Origin: Polyangiales bacterium | GTDB lineage: Bacteria; Myxococcota_A; Polyangia; Polyangiales; Polyangiaceae | Length of the DNA stretch: 64,000 nucleotides | Direction of reading: 5' to 3' | Assembly (NCBI GenBank): GCA_038231275.1 | Contig: JBBRLQ010000019.1 | Coordinates: 32,001-96,000 of the forward strand | In this document: positions 32,516 through 40,640 of the stretch, piece by piece | Position numbering within the stretch: the stretch's first letter is position 1 | Layout: each line of letters begins with the position of its first letter | Notes under the pieces: model-generated | The model's database searches: none | Seen by the model: only the letters and a program-made list of their open reading frames with translations | Told to the model about the DNA's origin: nothing | Made by a program: the position numbers and the translations under genes

Positions 32516-35500
32516 ATGCGGAAGCTATCTTTCATCTCGCTTGCCTTCTCGCTGGTGGCGTTCGCCGCCGGCTGCGAGGACGGGCCGAACCAGACCTACA
32601 ACCCGGCGCCTCCCAACGCCGGCAACCTGTGGAACAACGGCAACGCCGACGCGGCGGTGAATCCGTTCGCGCAGGACTTCGACGCGGGGTATCCAACCTC
32701 CAGCGCGACGTCGCTCTGCAGCACGGACTTCAAGCGGCAGCGGTGGGCGTGGATGCTCACGCAGCCCGTCCAGCCGCCGCGCTTCTACGCCGGCCTCGAC
32801 ATGGCGAAGGACGATCTCTGGACCGGCCTCAAGATCGAGGACGCCGAGAATCCGCCCGCCGATCCCAACTCTCCGACCGGCGGTATCTGCCAGTCGACGC
32901 CGTTCGGCTTCCAGGGCACGTGCCCCAGCGGCTTCGGCGGCTGCAACCTGAACGCGTGGGGCAATAACGCCGAGGTCCAGTTCTCCTGGAACGTCGCGAC
33001 GCACCTCGTCGACCAGATGATCTTGAACCTCGGGTACACCGGGACGCTGACGACCAAGCCGTACCCCGACCACAACGGCGAGCCTCACTCGTACTCGATT
33101 CAGGTCGGTGACGTGATTCGTCGCGACGGCCAGCCCTTCCAGATCGCGTGGACGGACATCGGCACCGCGCGCACGCAGATCACGGACATCTTCAACGGCG
33201 TCATGTCGACCTTCTCGGTGAAGGCCGGAGTTCCGTTCGACACCTCGACCTGCAACGCCGACGCCGAATGCGTCGCGCCCGGCACCAAATCGATCTGCGA
33301 GTGCAAGCACGCGGTCGACAGCGCCGGCAAACCCCTCGCGACGTGCCAGGCGCCAGGCCAGTGCGGAATCAAGAATTGCGGCACCGACGGCAACTGCCTC
33401 ATCCGGAACGACGGCAGCGTGACGATCTTCGGCATCCGCCCGATGGTCATCTACGTGCAGGGCACGGCCGGCGTCCCGCAGCCGGCCCTCAGCACGCCGA
33501 CGAGCTTCTACAACTTCTTCTCGAAGTGGGAGCCGTTCTCGTACCTCCCGCAAGAGGTGAAGCTCGACAAGGACGGACCCAACTCGTCGGGCACGCCGGT
33601 CGGTGTCCCCAAGGGCTCCACCCTCGTCTGCACCCAGGAAATCGGCCAAACGTTCGACGATTTCCGAAAAAACTGCGTCCAGGTCCACGGCGACTCGTCG
33701 AACCCGAGCGGCGTCGATGCGGTCAACCTCAACAAGGTCACGCATAGCCTCACGCACGATCAGGAGCATTGGACGGCGAACGTGCTGGGAGTGAACCAGA
33801 ACTTCACGTCGCTCCGGGTTCTCAACAACGAAGACTCGGTCGTTCTCGACACCGACGTGCCGGAGCCCGGCGACATCGCGCAGGATTGGACGTTCGACGT
33901 CCGCGCGCGCGGCGCGGTCAAGAACGAGTGGGGCGGAGATCTGCCCGGGTCGGCCCTCGTCTTCATCGAGTGGGCGCGCCTCATGCTCGAGGACATCGCC
34001 AAGATTCAAGGCCTCCCGGCGCCCAAGAAGCTCGGCGATCCGACGTGCGTCGGCTACGACGCCGCCGGCAACCCGAACTACAAGAACAGCACCGGATGCT
34101 CGGGCATCGAGGGTCTCATCGTCCCGTCGTACGGCGGCGTCGACTTCAGCAAGGACCCCAAGCGGCCCGATCTCGACGCCGGCATCAACTACGACGTCCT
34201 CTTCTCGTACGCCAGCGTGCTGAAGCCCGGTGACGTCGTCGGCCCGCTCTGCCTCGACCCCGGTGTCATGAGCGACTGCACCTACGACACGACGCTCTCC
34301 ACCTGGGGCAACGCGCTCCTGCACGTCACGCGCGTGATGGGCAATGGAGACATCAACAAGGTCCCGAGCGAGCTCCGTGACCGTCGCTACTACTTCAAGT
34401 GGTTCGGTGTCGCCTTCATCAAGTACATGAAGGCGTACGGCAACTACGACGCCGTCAAGCGCTTGCAGCTCCCCGACGGCACGCCGGGCGGCGGGCTCGG
34501 CCCGTCGGACGTCGCGGCGCAGCAGATCGACCTCGAGGCGCTGTTCTTCGACTACCTGGCCCAGCCGGGCGCAGGTGGCGCGCAGACGTTCGACAAGTTC
34601 GAGTACGTCGACCGCGAGTTCATCGGCAAGGGTGTCGGCGGGCAGTTCAACTGGGTCCCGTGGGACTTCGAGTACGGCACCGATCTGAAGGGCGGCAACC
34701 AGCGCTACGACAACTACTTCCGCCGCATGGATCGCGAAGAGGTCGCCCTCTACTCGGCGATGCTCACCGACAAGACGCACACGCCCGGCCAGGAGAACAA
34801 CGTCAACGTGACGAACCTGTTCGGCAGCATCATGCTCGGCGGCGACCCTTCGTCGAACGTGTCCGGCCTCTGGTCGAGCTACGCCTGCGCCATCGGACAA
34901 GCCGGCGATCCGGGCGCAAATTGCGGAGGCGTCAACCCGCCGCTCGATCCCACCAACCCCTCGAAGCTCCCGGCGTGCGGCGCCGGCGGCACGTGCGCGG
35001 CCGGTCGCGGCTGCATCACCGGAGTCACGTACGAGGCGGGCAACATCACCAAGTGTGCCGTGCCGTGCAACTTCACTTCGTATCCGAAATCCGGGTGCGC
35101 GAGCACAAGTCAGACGTGCGTAGTGAACGGCAGCTCCAATGGCTGCTTCGACATGATGATGGATTTGAACGGCACGGCCCCGAACGCCAAGCCGCTCCTC
35201 TCCTACTACCCCGGCGCGTGGACGCGAACGCCGTTCGGCCGCGGTCACAGCCCGATCAAGCTGCCCCAGGCCAACAAGAAGCCGCAGCTCGGCGTCGCGA
35301 AGGTCATCCTGCCGAACTTCCTCGACGGTCCGTATACGGCGAGCCCGGCGGTCGTCGATTCGACAGGCAAGTGCCCGACGAATTACGCGATCAGCGCGAA
35401 CGGTGTGTGGTGCAACGCGCCGCTCAACTCCGGCAACGGCGCACTCGCGGCGACCTTCAATGCGCTCTCGCCGTGGCTCGAGGTGCAGCCTGGTGTCGGC

Positions 35501-36049
35501 TTCCGTATCCCGCTCGACGGGCAGCGTGACCAGCAGGTCTCGACCGGACAGATCGACTACACCGGCGTCCTCGAGAGCTACATCGTCGACTACATCCCGT
35601 ACATCGACGGGGCGAAGGCGAGCTGCGTCGCAGACGGCAAGTGCAACAAGGGCTTCGTCTGCGAACCGGCCTCCAAGAGCTGCATCACCGACGACGATAC
35701 GATCGACGTCCAGGCGATCGAAGGCGCCGACTTCCTCGGCGAGGCGTTCCTCTGCCTCGACCCGCAGACGAGCGACGTCCTCCACGCACGCATGTACGAC
35801 TCGGTCCTCCCGATCATCGAGTGGTTCGCGGCCCACCCGGGCGGCGGCGTCAACCCGAACCAGGGCGGCTACTACCCGAGCGCGCAGAGCGCCTGCCAGA
35901 TCGTCATCCGGCGGACGCCCTACGACAACTACATCGACAGCATCACGTCCAAGACCTACGGCGTCGACCTCAACGTCGGCGGCGGTCAGGGCCTCGGTCG
36001 AATCACCGATGTCGTCCTCTTCGACCCCACGCTGGTCCAGGCCCTGTGA
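32516..36049 (+). CDS. Giant (~1177 aa) Cys-rich lipoprotein of unknown function
   Basis: SD AAGGAG, lipobox AAGC, clear coding bias, several Cys-rich modules (e.g. CVADGKCNKGFVCEPASKSC). No family motif recognised. Confidence 0.9.
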   Translation: MRKLSFISLAFSLVAFAAGCEDGPNQTYNPAPPNAGNLWNNGNADAAVNPFAQDFDAGYPTSSATSLCSTDFKRQRWAWMLTQPVQPPRFYAGLDMAKDDLWTGLKIEDAENPPADPNSPTGGICQSTPFGFQGTCPSGFGGCNLNAWGNNAEVQFSWNVATHLVDQMILNLGYTGTLTTKPYPDHNGEPHSYSIQVGDVIRRDGQPFQIAWTDIGTARTQITDIFNGVMSTFSVKAGVPFDTSTCNADAECVAPGTKSICECKHAVDSAGKPLATCQAPGQCGIKNCGTDGNCLIRNDGSVTIFGIRPMVIYVQGTAGVPQPALSTPTSFYNFFSKWEPFSYLPQEVKLDKDGPNSSGTPVGVPKGSTLVCTQEIGQTFDDFRKNCVQVHGDSSNPSGVDAVNLNKVTHSLTHDQEHWTANVLGVNQNFTSLRVLNNEDSVVLDTDVPEPGDIAQDWTFDVRARGAVKNEWGGDLPGSALVFIEWARLMLEDIAKIQGLPAPKKLGDPTCVGYDAAGNPNYKNSTGCSGIEGLIVPSYGGVDFSKDPKRPDLDAGINYDVLFSYASVLKPGDVVGPLCLDPGVMSDCTYDTTLSTWGNALLHVTRVMGNGDINKVPSELRDRRYYFKWFGVAFIKYMKAYGNYDAVKRLQLPDGTPGGGLGPSDVAAQQIDLEALFFDYLAQPGAGGAQTFDKFEYVDREFIGKGVGGQFNWVPWDFEYGTDLKGGNQRYDNYFRRMDREEVALYSAMLTDKTHTPGQENNVNVTNLFGSIMLGGDPSSNVSGLWSSYACAIGQAGDPGANCGGVNPPLDPTNPSKLPACGAGGTCAAGRGCITGVTYEAGNITKCAVPCNFTSYPKSGCASTSQTCVVNGSSNGCFDMMMDLNGTAPNAKPLLSYYPGAWTRTPFGRGHSPIKLPQANKKPQLGVAKVILPNFLDGPYTASPAVVDSTGKCPTNYAISANGVWCNAPLNSGNGALAATFNALSPWLEVQPGVGFRIPLDGQRDQQVSTGQIDYTGVLESYIVDYIPYIDGAKASCVADGKCNKGFVCEPASKSCITDDDTIDVQAIEGADFLGEAFLCLDPQTSDVLHARMYDSVLPIIEWFAAHPGGGVNPNQGGYYPSAQSACQIVIRRTPYDNYIDSITSKTYGVDLNVGGGQGLGRITDVVLFDPTLVQAL

Positions 36050-36069
36050 TGCGCCCGGAGATGAAAACC

Positions 36070-39000
36070 ATGACGTCCATGAGCCATCGTTCCACCTCCG
36101 CCTTGATCGCGCTCGCTTCGGTGAGCGCGCTCTGGGGCTGCGTCGCCGACCGCCCTTCGCGTAATGGCGTCTTCAGCGAGAACCAGTATCTCCGCAAGGA
36201 TTTTCTCGTCCAGCCGGGAGACGGCAACGCGCCCGATCGCGGCTGGTTCGTCAAATCCACGATCGTCGCGACGTCGACCCCCAACCCGCTCGCGAACGTG
36301 AGCGGGGCCGGGCTCTTCGCCGGCGCGGAGTCGGGGACGTCCAACTTCGTCCGCTTCGGCCTCACGCAGGACAAGCTGAACGTCATCAACCTGCGCGAGA
36401 TCAGCAACGATCCCAACTGGCAGGCGCAGAACCAGCGCGTGCCGGAGACGATCAACTCGTGGCCGGTCGCCAACGTCGATCTGAAATACCGCATCAACCT
36501 CGACGGCGAGAAGACCAACTTCTACGAAGAGAACCAGGAGCTCGACTGGCAAGTGCGTCAGTGGGTGAAGATCAACTTCGCAAAGAACGACATGAGCGAC
36601 TTCTACATGTTTTACGGGGGCCTGAACCCCGTCTTGCAGAAGTGTACCGACCAAGCGAACGCGACGGCGACGCTGGTGCCCGGCTCGTTCAACGTGGACA
36701 CGCCGAACGAGTATTGGGAGTACACGGTCGCCGTGACCGTGCCGGTCGGCTACAGCGACGGCGACGCCGCGACATGTCAGGCCGCGTTCGGCGCCTCCGC
36801 GGCCGGCTTCTTCAAGCTGAACCGCCAGAACGTCACCATCAACATCAAGACGGCGTTCGTCCGGCCCAACAAGGTCGTCGACGGCACGTACGTACCGATG
36901 CCGCTCGCCGAGAAGGATCCGATCCGCCGAAAGTACGGCGCGTTCGAGGTCCAGCCGATCTACCGCGACACGAGCTCGGGTCTCTTGACGTCGCAATCGC
37001 TCGTCGCACGCTTCAACCCGAATCACGACATCGTCTACTACTTCGCCCCCGGCATGCCCGAGGTCTACAAGCAGTTCTTCATCAAGGCGGGTGGGCTCGT
37101 CGAGCAGACGAACAATAGCATCCTCGCGAAGTCGGGCGGCAAGGGTCGCCTGAAGATGTTCAACTACAACGACGACACGACGTACGGCGACGGCAAAGGG
37201 CCGATCCGCATGTACGGCGATCCTCGCTACAGCTTCATCAACTGGCACTCGGATCTCGACAACGGCTCGGCGCTCCTCGGCATCGCGCAGTTCTTCGTCG
37301 ATCCGCACAGCGGCGAGACGTTGTCGGCGAGCGTCAACCTCTTCGAAGGCAACTTCAAGGACACGACGCAGCAGCGCCTCGATCTGTTCCTCCAGACCGT
37401 CGGCACCGAGTACCTCACGCCGAGCGGCGAGTTCGACGACTCCAAGTACCCGCAAGGCTGCAAGGACGGCGACGTCGTGCCGCTCGTGCCCGCCAACGTC
37501 GCGGGCCTCCTGAACCGCCAGTCGACCGTGTACGGCAAGATGCAGGCGTACCTGCAGAAACCGTTCGCCACGTACGGCTACCTCGGGCCCGCGGACTTCC
37601 TGCCGAACCACGACAGCGACTTTTACAACGCCTACTTCTCGGTGCTCCCGTACAACGTCTACGCCGATCCTTCGGCGAACCCGTACGTGACGCCGGAGGG
37701 GACGCAGCTCGACTCGAGCGCGGCCCAGTGGACGTCGCTCCAGCAGATCGCCGCGTTCAACAAGCTCGCGGGCAAGATCGACCAGGGCTGGGCGCCCTAC
37801 GACGTCGAGGGCCCCGGCGCGGTCAAGGGAGCGGTCGACTTCTCGGAGACGTGGTCGACCCTTGCCCAGTCCGTCACCGACTACGAGTACACGCGCCGCT
37901 ACGGCAGCAAGATGCGCGCGGCGGACGACGCGTCGCTCTTCTCGTACTTCGATATCTACCAAAAGAACGGACGGCACTGCGTCGGCGGAAAGTGGGAGTC
38001 GCGAGCGGACTACACCACCAACCTCATCACGAGCCTCAACATGGCGGTGGCGGCGCACGAGTTCGGGCACACGCTCGGCCTGCGCCACAACTTCATGGGC
38101 TCGATCGACCAGCGCAACTTCCCGAAAGACGCGAACGGTCGCCCGACGCTCTATGCGTCGAGCCTCATGGACTACAACCAGACGATCTCGGAGGCGTTCT
38201 TCGAGACGAACCCGGGCTCGCCCGGCTGGGGTCCGTACGACGCGGCGGCGCTCGGCTGGATTTATGGCAACAGCCTCTCGACGAGCGCGGTCGGCCCCGT
38301 AGCGACGCCGGCCGGTCAGAAGTCGTCGACGGCCTCGGGTCAGGTCAGCGCGACGGCTCCGTGGAACGATCCGCTCGGCTTCGCGGCCGACGGCAAGACG
38401 GAGAACCCGTTCCTCTACTGCAGCGACGAGCACCTCCGCTACACGCCGCTCTGTCGGCAGTACGACTCGGGCGTGACGCCGTCGGAAATCACCGCGAACG
38501 ATCTCCAGCGCCGTGAGTGGAATTACTTGTGGACGAACTTCCGCCTCTACCACAAGTACTTCTCGACCGAGAATTACGGCCAGGGCGTCGTCCGCGACTT
38601 CAACGAGATGCGCCGCTTCTCGTCGCTCTGGGCCTTCGACTGGTCGGGCGGCGAGCTCACCAATACGCTGCGCCTCATCGGCACGAAGGTCCCGGTGGGG
38701 ACGACCGCCGCGGACTACTACAACCAGCTGACCGCGAAGTTCAACACCGACGCGTCGATCGCGAACCAGCTCGCGGCGTCGTACCACCGCGCGATCATCG
38801 AGCAGGCCTCCGGCGAGCGTCCGTTCGTCACCGTGTTCGATCCGTTCTACGGCGACGTCACCCAGCAGGGCATCCAGATCGACAAGGTCCAAGCGACCAC
38901 GTCGTTCAGCGCGCTCTGGCCCGCGATCAGCAATTACGATCCGAGCCAGGCGGCCGGCGTGTACTTCTCGAGCGCGTCCGGTCAATTCGGCGATTCGACG

Positions 39001-39582
39001 TACACCTCGGTGTCGCGCGCCGTCCTCGCGGACTTCCTGGGCGCCGCGTTCGCGACGTTCCAGTACGCGCAGCTCGGTCCTATCGCGAACTTCGCGGCGT
39101 CGACGCATAGCGCGAAGTACACGGGCGATCTCCGGCTGCAGACCTGGGTCGGCGGCTGGGCCTTCAACCGCGAGCGTGACTTCCTGGACTTCGTCCGGCA
39201 GTCCGCGGTCGCGACCAAGTTCGCCAACTGCGACGAGAACGGCCTCAACTGCTCGCCGTGCACGTCGCTCGACAAGTGCACCTGGGACCCGCGCACGCAG
39301 CAGGCACGCGCGGCCCAGCTGACGCAGTCCGATCACTACAACCGCTTCCAGTCGCCGGACGGACGCACCTACATCTGGGGCTTCATCCGGAGCCGCAACC
39401 AGTGGGTCATCGCGGACAAGGATCGCAACATCGCGACCTACGCCCTGATGCTCAACTGGACCACCGACATCATCAACGGCGAGGACGACGGCTTCAACGG
39501 CGCCAGCCCGCTGGAGTACAAGGTCCGCTACATCGTCGACGCCTTTACGACCTACGATCAGCAGACGCTCAACGCGCCGTGA
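36070..39582 (+). CDS. Giant zinc-dependent metalloprotease lipoprotein (metzincin, EcxA/DUF4953-like)
   Basis: Lipobox LWGC, HEFGHTLGLRHNF zinc motif, Met-turn SSLMDY, GPYDAAAL, FLYCSDE. In-frame ATGs at 36049/36061/36070/36079; GGAG favours 36070. Confidence 0.9.
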   Translation: MTSMSHRSTSALIALASVSALWGCVADRPSRNGVFSENQYLRKDFLVQPGDGNAPDRGWFVKSTIVATSTPNPLANVSGAGLFAGAESGTSNFVRFGLTQDKLNVINLREISNDPNWQAQNQRVPETINSWPVANVDLKYRINLDGEKTNFYEENQELDWQVRQWVKINFAKNDMSDFYMFYGGLNPVLQKCTDQANATATLVPGSFNVDTPNEYWEYTVAVTVPVGYSDGDAATCQAAFGASAAGFFKLNRQNVTINIKTAFVRPNKVVDGTYVPMPLAEKDPIRRKYGAFEVQPIYRDTSSGLLTSQSLVARFNPNHDIVYYFAPGMPEVYKQFFIKAGGLVEQTNNSILAKSGGKGRLKMFNYNDDTTYGDGKGPIRMYGDPRYSFINWHSDLDNGSALLGIAQFFVDPHSGETLSASVNLFEGNFKDTTQQRLDLFLQTVGTEYLTPSGEFDDSKYPQGCKDGDVVPLVPANVAGLLNRQSTVYGKMQAYLQKPFATYGYLGPADFLPNHDSDFYNAYFSVLPYNVYADPSANPYVTPEGTQLDSSAAQWTSLQQIAAFNKLAGKIDQGWAPYDVEGPGAVKGAVDFSETWSTLAQSVTDYEYTRRYGSKMRAADDASLFSYFDIYQKNGRHCVGGKWESRADYTTNLITSLNMAVAAHEFGHTLGLRHNFMGSIDQRNFPKDANGRPTLYASSLMDYNQTISEAFFETNPGSPGWGPYDAAALGWIYGNSLSTSAVGPVATPAGQKSSTASGQVSATAPWNDPLGFAADGKTENPFLYCSDEHLRYTPLCRQYDSGVTPSEITANDLQRREWNYLWTNFRLYHKYFSTENYGQGVVRDFNEMRRFSSLWAFDWSGGELTNTLRLIGTKVPVGTTAADYYNQLTAKFNTDASIANQLAASYHRAIIEQASGERPFVTVFDPFYGDVTQQGIQIDKVQATTSFSALWPAISNYDPSQAAGVYFSSASGQFGDSTYTSVSRAVLADFLGAAFATFQYAQLGPIANFAASTHSAKYTGDLRLQTWVGGWAFNRERDFLDFVRQSAVATKFANCDENGLNCSPCTSLDKCTWDPRTQQARAAQLTQSDHYNRFQSPDGRTYIWGFIRSRNQWVIADKDRNIATYALMLNWTTDIINGEDDGFNGASPLEYKVRYIVDAFTTYDQQTLNAP

Positions 39583-39610
39583 CGGGTTCGTAAAACCAGT
39601 TACCTCATTC

Positions 39611-39687
39611 TCTTCCTACCCCCGCTCCCACCCGCCCCCGATCGCATCCGGGGCAAGCCCCGGGAGCGGGGGTGGGGAGGGATTTTT
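39611..39687 (+). terminator. Long GC hairpin with T-run, probable terminator/attenuator
   Basis: TCTTCCTACCCCCGCTCCC pairs with GGGAGCGGGGGTGGGGAG, followed by ATTTTT. Confidence 0.65.
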
Positions 39688-39703
39688 CCCATTTCGAGGC
39701 ACC

Positions 39704-40072
39704 GTGAAGCTTCGCAGCGCGCTCGTCTTCTTCTTGGCCTGCGGCGTCCTCGCGGCGTCCGCATGCAACAGCTCCTCGTCGACCGCGACGAACGACGGCG
39801 GCGGCGCGACCGACACCGACAGCGGCGCACGGGGCTCCTCCGGGAGCTCGGGCGGGAGCCATGACGGCGCGGCACCCTCCGAAACAGGCTCTGCGGACGA
39901 CGGCGCGCTACCCGACGACGGGAGTACGCCCGGCGACGGCGCCGCCTCCACGGACGACGGCAGTAGCGGAACGTCGAGCGACGGCGGATGCGCGGGCGTC
40001 GGCGACAAATGCGGCCCCGGCATCAAGTGTTGCGCGGGAACGACCTGCGACATCTACAAAACGTGCAGTTGA
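39704..40072 (+). CDS. Small lipoprotein with S/G/D/T stalk and C-terminal knottin-pattern domain
   Basis: SD GAGG, GTG start, lipobox ASAC. C-terminus CAGVGDKCGPGIKCCAGTTCDIYKTCS. Confidence 0.8.
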   Translation: MKLRSALVFFLACGVLAASACNSSSSTATNDGGGATDTDSGARGSSGSSGGSHDGAAPSETGSADDGALPDDGSTPGDGAASTDDGSSGTSSDGGCAGVGDKCGPGIKCCAGTTCDIYKTCS

Positions 40073-40106
40073 ACCGCGCGGATGGCCCGCTCTCGCGATC
40101 GCTCCG

Positions 40107-40640
40107 TCAGTGAACCTGCCACCGCCCGTGGGCCAAGGTGTACTTGATCTCCGTGCCGCCACCGGTCGGATCGTCGGGCACGAGTCGGATCACCTCGTTG
40201 CCCTTCAGCGTCCAGCGCTCGTCCCACTTGCCGTCGCGGTCCATGTCGACGAGGACGCCGCCGAACCGATGCTCGGCGACGCTGCCGACGATGCGGGCCT
40301 TGTAGGGGCGGTCGGGGAAGAGATCGAGGAGGCGCGTGCGTTCGAGGCGCTCGTCGGCGAGGGCGGCGAAGATGTCCTTGTCCATGGGGCGGAGGGGCAC
40401 GCCCGCTTGGAAGGAAGGATCCTCGGCGAGGTCGAAGTGCTGGACGGCGGGCGATGCTGCGTTTGGCGCCGCCGCCGCCGAGAGCGCGGGCGAGGACGTC
40501 TTGGCCTCGACCTCCGGGATTCGCCGAGACCAGCGCCCCACGCCGATGCCGACGCCGCCCACGAGCGCGAACGCCACGAGCAGCGTCCCCTTCGACCGCC
40601 ACGCTGTTCCAAGGCGAATTGCCTGCCCGCGGTTTGTCAT
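40107..40640 (-). CDS. Membrane-anchored hypothetical protein with a DxDxDG motif
   Basis: N-terminal TM and a DMDRDGKWDE Ca-binding-like loop. Confidence 0.7.
   Translation of the reverse strand: MTNRGQAIRLGTAWRSKGTLLVAFALVGGVGIGVGRWSRRIPEVEAKTSSPALSAAAAPNAASPAVQHFDLAEDPSFQAGVPLRPMDKDIFAALADERLERTRLLDLFPDRPYKARIVGSVAEHRFGGVLVDMDRDGKWDERWTLKGNEVIRLVPDDPTGGGTEIKYTLAHGRWQVH

Follow-up and report, generated by a model that had tools for sequence, protein, structure and literature searches.

The closest described systems to the lipoprotein gene considered here are inhibitor cystine knot (ICK) peptides with adjacent third and fourth cysteines, namely conotoxins of the O-superfamily type and spider toxins (PF07740 and PF02950; 2n8h, 2kgu, and 1wqb), the asteropsins of sponges (2n3p), and the amaranth alpha-amylase inhibitor (1clv). 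Venom-type knottins are made as precursors, from which the mature peptide is released by cleavage at a basic site in the propeptide. Knottin loops have length biases, the first loop having 3 or 6 residues (PMC2238874). An initial annotation of the DNA studied here had remarked that such knots are mostly described in eukaryotes; this stands for solved structures but not for predictions, since the KNOTTIN database already listed predicted bacterial knottins in 2018, without an experimental structure, and the passages of its paper that deal with them name neither taxa nor family (PMC5753296).

Two further groups of bacterial proteins are relevant. Potempins are outer-membrane lipoproteins with a beta-barrel fold and proven inhibitors, and their genes lie upstream of the peptidase genes, mostly within 5 bp of them, and are co-transcribed with them (PMC9890683). 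In addition, the papers on SCREP proteins, whose main text does not mention myxobacteria, point to a large number of cysteine-rich repeat proteins in bacteria with architectures not yet known (PMC9885460, PMC6262176).

Here we describe a gene in a 64,000-nucleotide stretch of DNA (the window) that corresponds to positions 32001-96000 of contig C19 in a 9.3-Mb genome with 69% G+C (G000).

Results

The lipoprotein gene and its surroundings

The window carries the following features (window positions):

32516..36049, + strand: 1177-aa Cys-containing lipoprotein, first gene of a two-gene core, with similar large ORFs upstream at homologous loci
36049..39582, + strand: metzincin lipoprotein (PF16313) of ~1170 aa, start uncertain (36049-36079)
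39607..39683, + strand: strong G+C hairpin with a few U residues in a row behind it (-60.8 kcal/mol and z -3.96 for the fold of the intergenic stretch)
39704..40072, + strand: 122-aa lipoprotein gene with a GTG start and orthologues at loci L051, L052, and L059
39704..39766, + strand: putative signal peptide II, 21 residues, with a lipobox-like A-S-A-C whose Ala-Cys is invariant in 4/4 orthologues
39767..39988, + strand: acidic Ser/Gly/Asp/Thr stalk, residues 22-95 (74 aa)
39989..40069, + strand: 27-aa six-Cys module C-X6-C-X5-CC-X4-C-X5-C, a predicted inhibitor cystine knot (sequence, profiles, AlphaFold2)
40107..40640, - strand: convergent membrane-anchored 177-aa protein ending in GRWQxH, with homologues directly after the metzincin elsewhere

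Because of its GC3 of 0.85 and three orthologous ORFs, we consider 39704-40072 a real gene. Its product runs from the signal peptide through the acidic stalk to one C-terminal knottin-like module, with cysteines at residues 13, 21, 96, 103, 109, 110, 115, and 121. The cysteine spacing of the last 27 residues, the stalk of ~70 residues, and the tethered lipoprotein architecture are as the initial annotation had described them. Judging from the lipobox-like motif, Cys21 (39764-39766) is the likely lipid attachment site. Neither Asp nor Lys occupies position +2 and Ala is absent at +7, which under the sorting rules of Myxococcus (PMC3222651), rules that may not hold in Polyangiaceae, points to an outer-membrane location. 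The stalk (18 Ser, 18 Gly, 12 Asp, 9 Ala, 8 Thr, and one basic residue) is likely disordered. Across the four orthologues its length stays within 67-74 aa at 32-43% identity, and none of the four stalks contains a dibasic site. The module is followed by a single Ser and the stop codon, and its last loop is of the D-x-Y-[HK] type. Net charges of the four orthologous modules range from +1 to -2, and aromatic residues are few (one or two per module, with one Tyr conserved).

The whole 122-aa protein had no significant match in Pfam or NCBIfam, and no dedicated model in either collection matched the module. Word-based homologue searches returned nothing for residues 83-122, nor for the four-orthologue alignment (lengths 62-214 only); since orthologues exist at homologous loci, we attribute these blanks to low sensitivity. 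A 359-base contig in each of runs X2 and X3 of one study spans 39955-40296 with 23 differing letters, so module and convergent gene also lie side by side in a close strain.

The presence of an adjacent metzincin, also noted initially, was confirmed: the upstream protein scores 43.1 bits against PF16313 (cut-off 24.2), and both its zinc motif HEFGHTLGLRH (38056-38088) and its Met-turn (38158-38175) are intact. Neither the 1177-aa lipoprotein nor the GRWQxH protein matched a Pfam or NCBIfam family. The hairpin at 39607..39683 was not called by a simple terminator scan; from its sequence, it is likely a terminator or an mRNA-stabilising element. No sigma-70 promoter was found within 39300-40400.

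Predicted fold of the module

The module has the sequence hallmarks of knottins, i.e., six cysteines in a C-C-CC-C-C frame, a first loop of six residues, and adjacent Cys III and IV. The best-scoring knottin family, PF07740 (Toxin_12), gave 17.3 bits (E 0.0076) where its cut-off is 21. The four orthologues, searched as a profile, had 13 matches among PDB sequences to E 10, including conotoxin muO-GVIIJ (2n8h), which it matched over all six cysteines (E 0.011). The broader family profile described below had 52 PDB matches to E 1 (best 0.0004); nearly all are venom or plant peptides that we take to be knottins, with NIP1 (1kg1) as the clear exception.

AlphaFold2 modelled the module at a pLDDT of 84.4 from a 37-sequence input and at 83.9 in the best of its single-sequence models (58-79 in the other four). 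Comparison of the two models with 48,161 chains by VIA-align placed knottin-type peptides, as we presume them all to be, in the top 12 and top 11 positions, with an rmsd of 1.1-1.9 Å over 27-30 residues and Z of 2.8-3.5, which is low by the tool's own scale and expected for so short a chain. The knottin fold proposed in the initial annotation is therefore upheld at the level of structure prediction.

An alternative concerning the fold only, and compatible with any of the functional readings below, is that the cysteines bind metal or pair without a knot, as in hairpin stacks of the granulin, EGF, or Dickkopf/colipase type. Knot connectivity is a prediction, neighbouring Myxococcota clusters are automatically named Dickkopf_N or DUF7107, some paralogues score weakly against Dickkopf_N (E 0.11-0.18), and the fold lists include colipase, Bv8, and Dickkopf with Z of 2.2-2.4. 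However, the colipase, Bv8, IGFBP, and Dickkopf folds rank below the knottins and fit worse in both models (2.1-4.0 Å), and the PDB sequence matches are nearly all presumed knottins. We thus regard this alternative as unlikely. Granulin turned up neither among the PDB matches of the family profile to E 1 nor in the fold lists, an absence that speaks neither for nor against it. The lines of evidence for the knot are not independent, since all of them rest on cysteine spacing, and AlphaFold2 may be biased toward a knot for such spacing through its training set. Taking this into account, it is very probable, on the models, that the module of 39704-40072 is a true cystine knot (I-IV, II-V, III-VI). 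Oxidation genes in the genome comprise 13 matches to PF13462 (DsbA-like) and one VKOR match.

A family of modules in Polyangiaceae and other Myxococcota

A six-frame scan of the source genome with a relaxed pattern (C-X6-C-X5-CC-X2-8-C-X2-10-C) returned 39 matches in 23 reading frames. Two were dropped (one in an Arg-rich shadow frame and one in a poly-Cys low-complexity frame), leaving 37 module copies in 21 credible ORFs. Five within-ORF shuffles gave 0, 0, 0, 2, and 1 matches, and five control patterns (with the CC pair placed elsewhere or the pattern reversed) gave 0-5 each, so the spacing does not arise by chance. The exact spacing of the window module occurs twice in this genome.

Three kinds of lipoprotein carry the module: tandem arrays of at most six copies, beta-propeller proteins with modules at their tails, and stalked proteins with a single copy. 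Most copies sit in tandem arrays or on propeller lipoproteins of 600-1000 aa, and the top matches in relatives lie mostly within frames of 600-900 aa. In the source genome, ~13 beta-propeller lipoproteins end in one or two modules; PD40 matches were obtained in 4/4 of those scanned, 3/4 above the cut-off. It looks as though PD40/TolB-like propeller lipoproteins are the main carrier family. These carriers are paralogous large lipoproteins of a family without a specific name, and they lie at C1:290733, C1:247608, C3:117122, C3:420051, C3:497763, C4:40519, C6:329092, C11:39359, C17:154437, C20:127471, C35:26445, C23 (~99.7 kb), and C45 (~48.9 kb) of G000 (loci L034, L035, L038-L043, L045-L047, L049, and L050). 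A twin of the window protein, with a lipobox, a 71-aa acidic stalk, and a single terminal module, is encoded at C1:723483-723866 (- strand; L033) in an unrelated gene context, beside MFS transporter and PP2C-like phosphatase genes, and its contig has no ORF with a metzincin motif.

A family profile built from 43 module copies had matches in 47 of 61 genomes (G000 and 60 relatives) and in 33 of 201 genomes drawn from the whole phylum, 12 of the 15 other Polyangiaceae among them. Among 1.84 billion cluster representatives, 1091 matched at E<=0.001. The best 150 of these 1091 clusters hold 1229 modules with the consensus C-X6-C-X5-CC-X3/4-C-X4-C, the first loop having six residues in 1184 and the second five in 1108. 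Three of the 14 top members listed bear a name, in each case 'hypothetical protein'. Thirteen matches were inspected whole by eye, and one looked eukaryotic: P0105, a 1403-aa protein resembling a eukaryotic sulfatase, with ~12 similar module copies. When the module by itself was used in a similarity search (Atlas), a single lead emerged, an unnamed Myxococcota cluster at 0.83. Some Myxococcota clusters are automatically named 'I2-superfamily conotoxins domain-containing protein' (PF17557; score 0.92, with 174 features in common but of low value for recognition), and one paralogue in the source genome passes PF17557 (36.6 bits, cut-off 27); the conotoxin-like resemblance is already picked up by automated tools.

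Collectively, the module is a generic Cys repeat of Polyangiaceae and other myxobacteria, not special to this locus, and by its sequence the 122-aa protein belongs, with a single module, to a large family of exported Cys-rich proteins in Polyangiaceae. We found no description of this family in the mostly open-access literature searched, and a large myxobacterial six-Cys repeat family has apparently gone undescribed so far. True cystine-knot domains are quite probably widespread in Polyangiaceae and other Myxococcota, where they would serve as an envelope binding scaffold.

The initial annotation had suggested two roles on which the family and the module's composition bear. In the first, as we spell it out here, the protein would be a toxin precursor whose stalk is cut by the metzincin, freeing a knottin active on protists, fungi, or invertebrates. 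Venom peptides are indeed the nearest solved sequences and folds, and the orthologue profile matches a conotoxin over all six cysteines. However, this likeness lies mostly in cysteine spacing, and most solved peptides with that spacing come from venoms. In addition, PF07740 scores under its cut-off, the modules are nearly neutral to weakly acidic (+1 to -2) with few aromatics, the four stalks lack a dibasic site, and most module copies belong to tandem arrays or large propeller lipoproteins. Release as a toxin thus found no support and is, in our opinion, extremely improbable.

In the second, which we extend from carbohydrates to surfaces, the module would be tethered for binding and would attach the cell to prey, chitin, or cellulose. 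An aromatic platform serves for binding in hevein domains and in the CBM1 domains of fungi, whereas the modules here have one or two aromatics each, a single Tyr being conserved. No carbohydrate-binding family appears among the Pfam matches to E 1 either. The design of a small domain on a stalk would suit such a role, a chitin-binding knottin is known in tachystatin A (PMC2853521), and tachystatin B occurs in the fold lists, last or near last. This suggestion likewise gained no support, and we judge it very unlikely.

Linkage of the knot gene to the metzincin

The first eight full-length metzincin homologues (42-54% identity) have no knot lipoprotein downstream. Closer loci were found by searching with the C-terminal 300 residues of the protease, and the closest metzincins, at L052 (84% identity), L059 (79%), and L051 (76%), are each followed in the same slot and on the same strand by a 113-119-aa lipoprotein with a stalk of 67-71 aa and one terminal module. 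In a tree of 40 metzincin loci, these three group with the locus of the window in a single clade (support 94/89, just below the tree's starred threshold), which indicates a single gain rather than four independent ones. The clade spans at least two GTDB genera, with L059 in a genome (G207) of a genus other than that of G000, and the gene downstream of the knot gene differs among the four loci.

Among 53 distinct metzincin loci, 49 lack the knot gene, including 9 of the 13 in the window's own subclade. The flank inspected per locus was mostly 1.5-4 kb (348 nt only at L078, a frameshifted sequence at L096, and a partial match at L103), and the counts leave out two duplicates (L062, equal to L059, and L065, equal to L060) as well as L086 (80 nt of flank). 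At L063 and L064 the metzincins are 71-72% identical to that of the window, yet the knot gene is absent, and the orthologue profile had no match in their genomes. Indeed, L063 has the window's arrangement minus the knot gene, i.e., the protease, a hairpin, and a convergent GRWQ-type gene. Gaps between protease and knot gene measure 121, 161, 89, and 88 nt in the four loci, all with a hairpin (z -3.8 to -4.8); hairpins also follow the proteases of L063 (z -4.1) and, weakly, L064 (z -1.8). The source genome has 14 ORFs with a metzincin motif, and of its 22 ORFs that carry modules only one lies next to any of them.

The module has changed faster than the protease: identity outside the cysteines is 14-52% among the four orthologues, versus 76-84% for the proteases relative to the window's. 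Nevertheless, the last eight residues are identical between the window and L052, and a D-x1-2-Y-[HK] last loop is present in all four orthologues and in 0 of the 1229 generic modules from the best 150 of the 1091 clusters; similar last loops occur in two unrelated proteins (L093 and L094). Searching 383 genomes of the family with the four-orthologue profile yielded nothing else that matched strongly (E 1.6e-6 for the next best). By gene order and sequence, the link between knot gene and protease appears real but narrow, being limited to one clade. Accordingly, the initial annotation, which counted against itself the case of a generic repeat unlinked to the protease operon, was right to fear the first part (37 copies, 47 of 61 genomes) but not the second, and the synteny that it proposed to examine is kept at all four loci of this clade while missing from the other 49.

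Elsewhere, the slot after the metzincin is taken by the GRWQxH protein, by a lipoprotein with 14-18 Cys, or by a protein resembling an outer-membrane barrel, or has no recognisable occupant, and the third gene of the operon appears, on these comparisons, to be swappable. The GRWQxH protein (~175 aa) follows on the same strand at six loci (L053, L055-L058, and L060) and is convergent at two, the window and L063; at L054, the gene may be a copy interrupted by an insertion sequence. The 14-18-Cys lipoprotein, which has an acidic tail, fills the slot at L002, L003, L005, L028, L068, L072, L074, L077, and L107, and the four scanned had no significant Pfam or NCBIfam match. Homology between it and the 122-aa protein is unlikely by eye, given a different Cys pattern and a reversed domain order. 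The source genome holds two more giant-lipoprotein/metzincin pairs (C19:142738-146469 and C2:259712-263251), one followed by a barrel-like protein and the other by an 18-Cys lipoprotein. A TPR lipoprotein with a thioredoxin-like (WAPWCHSC-type) motif is encoded convergently right after the knot gene at L051 (4777-6246, - strand) and L059 (5362-6804, - strand), and also after the metzincin at L106; there may be a redox link.

The remaining role suggested initially is inhibition or regulation of the adjacent metzincin. In a dedicated inhibitor or regulator, the stalk would give the knot access to the active-site cleft, and the conserved Asp/Tyr hairpin would be wedged there; the cell would thus shield its envelope from the enzyme, much as with the potempins of Tannerella. 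Potato carboxypeptidase inhibitor has a C-terminal tail; with one residue after its last cysteine, the module has no tail of this kind. The gene is on the same strand directly downstream, is kept at 4/4 loci of a clade (94/89) that covers two genera, and has a clade-specific last-loop motif, down to eight identical terminal residues between the window and L052; protease and knot protein are both lipoproteins. Precedents exist in small lipoprotein inhibitors encoded beside peptidases (PMC9890683) and in the enzyme inhibitors among knottins (PMC5753296). On the other hand, 49 of 53 metzincin loci do without the gene, including close relatives such as L063 and L064, the four loci represent one gain, and the module loops diverge much faster than the protease. 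The gaps of 88-161 nt with a hairpin also differ from the overlap or spacing of at most 5 bp, with co-transcription, seen for most potempins (PMC9890683). Positive evidence for inhibition goes no further than adjacency, and we consider dedicated inhibition unlikely.

Discussion

We propose, with a probability of roughly 60%, that the 122-aa protein is a tethered, likely knotted binding module whose gene was gained once behind the protease operon, as an optional accessory and not an obligatory inhibitor. An optional accessory is favoured because close relatives of the protease do without the gene, and because the gene lies behind a probable terminator and evolves fast. More specifically, the protein would be exported by Sec, lipidated at Cys21, and sorted by default to the outer membrane, and DsbA-like and VKOR proteins would oxidise the six cysteines to the I-IV, II-V, and III-VI disulfides. 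The unstructured acidic stalk would hold the knot away from the membrane and set its reach, making it a protease-resistant binding knob on a flexible leash of fixed length; since stalk length is kept (67-74 aa, and 71 in the twin) while its sequence drifts, reach seems to be important. The loops vary while the Cys frame stays the same, which suggests protein binding, and the loops would thus contact a protein partner in the envelope. Protein binding is also the usual role of knottins (PMC5753296). The metzincin complex is the most obvious candidate partner, and clade-wide retention beside the protease together with the clade-specific last loop hints at a dedicated one. A single gain would have placed the gene behind the giant-lipoprotein/metzincin operon, in a position filled by unrelated proteins elsewhere, and its expression would be separate from, or damped relative to, that of the protease operon, although the hairpin between the genes may permit read-through.

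For the family as a whole, the module probably works as a binding knob of general use in the cell envelope, and not as a toxin or as an inhibitor dedicated to a protease. A combined account, in which an undescribed family of true-knot envelope scaffolds supplied one copy that was recruited as a dedicated metzincin inhibitor or substrate adaptor, in the position of a swappable third gene, seems to us distinctly unlikely. If it held, a bacterial knottin would control a metzincin and a swappable third gene would tune the protease system; unless protease binding is demonstrated, the locus itself is a modest finding.

The family may have broader significance if its fold is confirmed. It would offer an experimentally tractable bacterial knottin, none having been solved as of the 2018 KNOTTIN paper (PMC5753296), and would make the knottin scaffold a common repeat of myxobacterial envelope proteins, with more than 1000 protein clusters. 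It would also bear on whether cystine knots had single or multiple origins, and its natural loop diversity could serve protein-binder work. The 27-residue single module is the simplest family member to make and test.

Among known systems, other Cys-rich modules of myxobacteria, such as NF041328 (MXAN_6577-like), Dickkopf_N (PF04706), and DUF7107 (PF23416), are likewise short disulfide-rich exported repeats. None of these models matches the window module, and in two paralogues an NF041328-like region lies next to the knot module, outside the six cysteines. With the potempins PotA-E of Tannerella forsythia, the protein shares a similar length (118-152 aa in potempins) and the arrangement of a small lipoprotein beside a secreted peptidase (PMC9890683). 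Unlike these beta-barrels (OB or up-and-down), it consists of a low-complexity stalk and a 27-aa six-Cys module, and its gene lies downstream of the peptidase, behind a hairpin, and is missing at most homologous loci. Its downstream position, 88-161-nt gaps, and non-barrel architecture rule out its being a potempin. Unlike venom-type knottins, all four orthologues have an N-terminal lipobox and stalks free of dibasic sites. The module also differs from the ICK peptides, which are released, in being bacterial, likely lipid-tethered, usually repeated or fused to large envelope proteins, below the Pfam cut-off, and predicted in its disulfides. What it has in common with them is the C-X6-C-X5-CC-C-C spacing and a Gly at the fourth position past Cys I; in addition, its backbone as predicted deviates from theirs by 1.1-1.9 Å.
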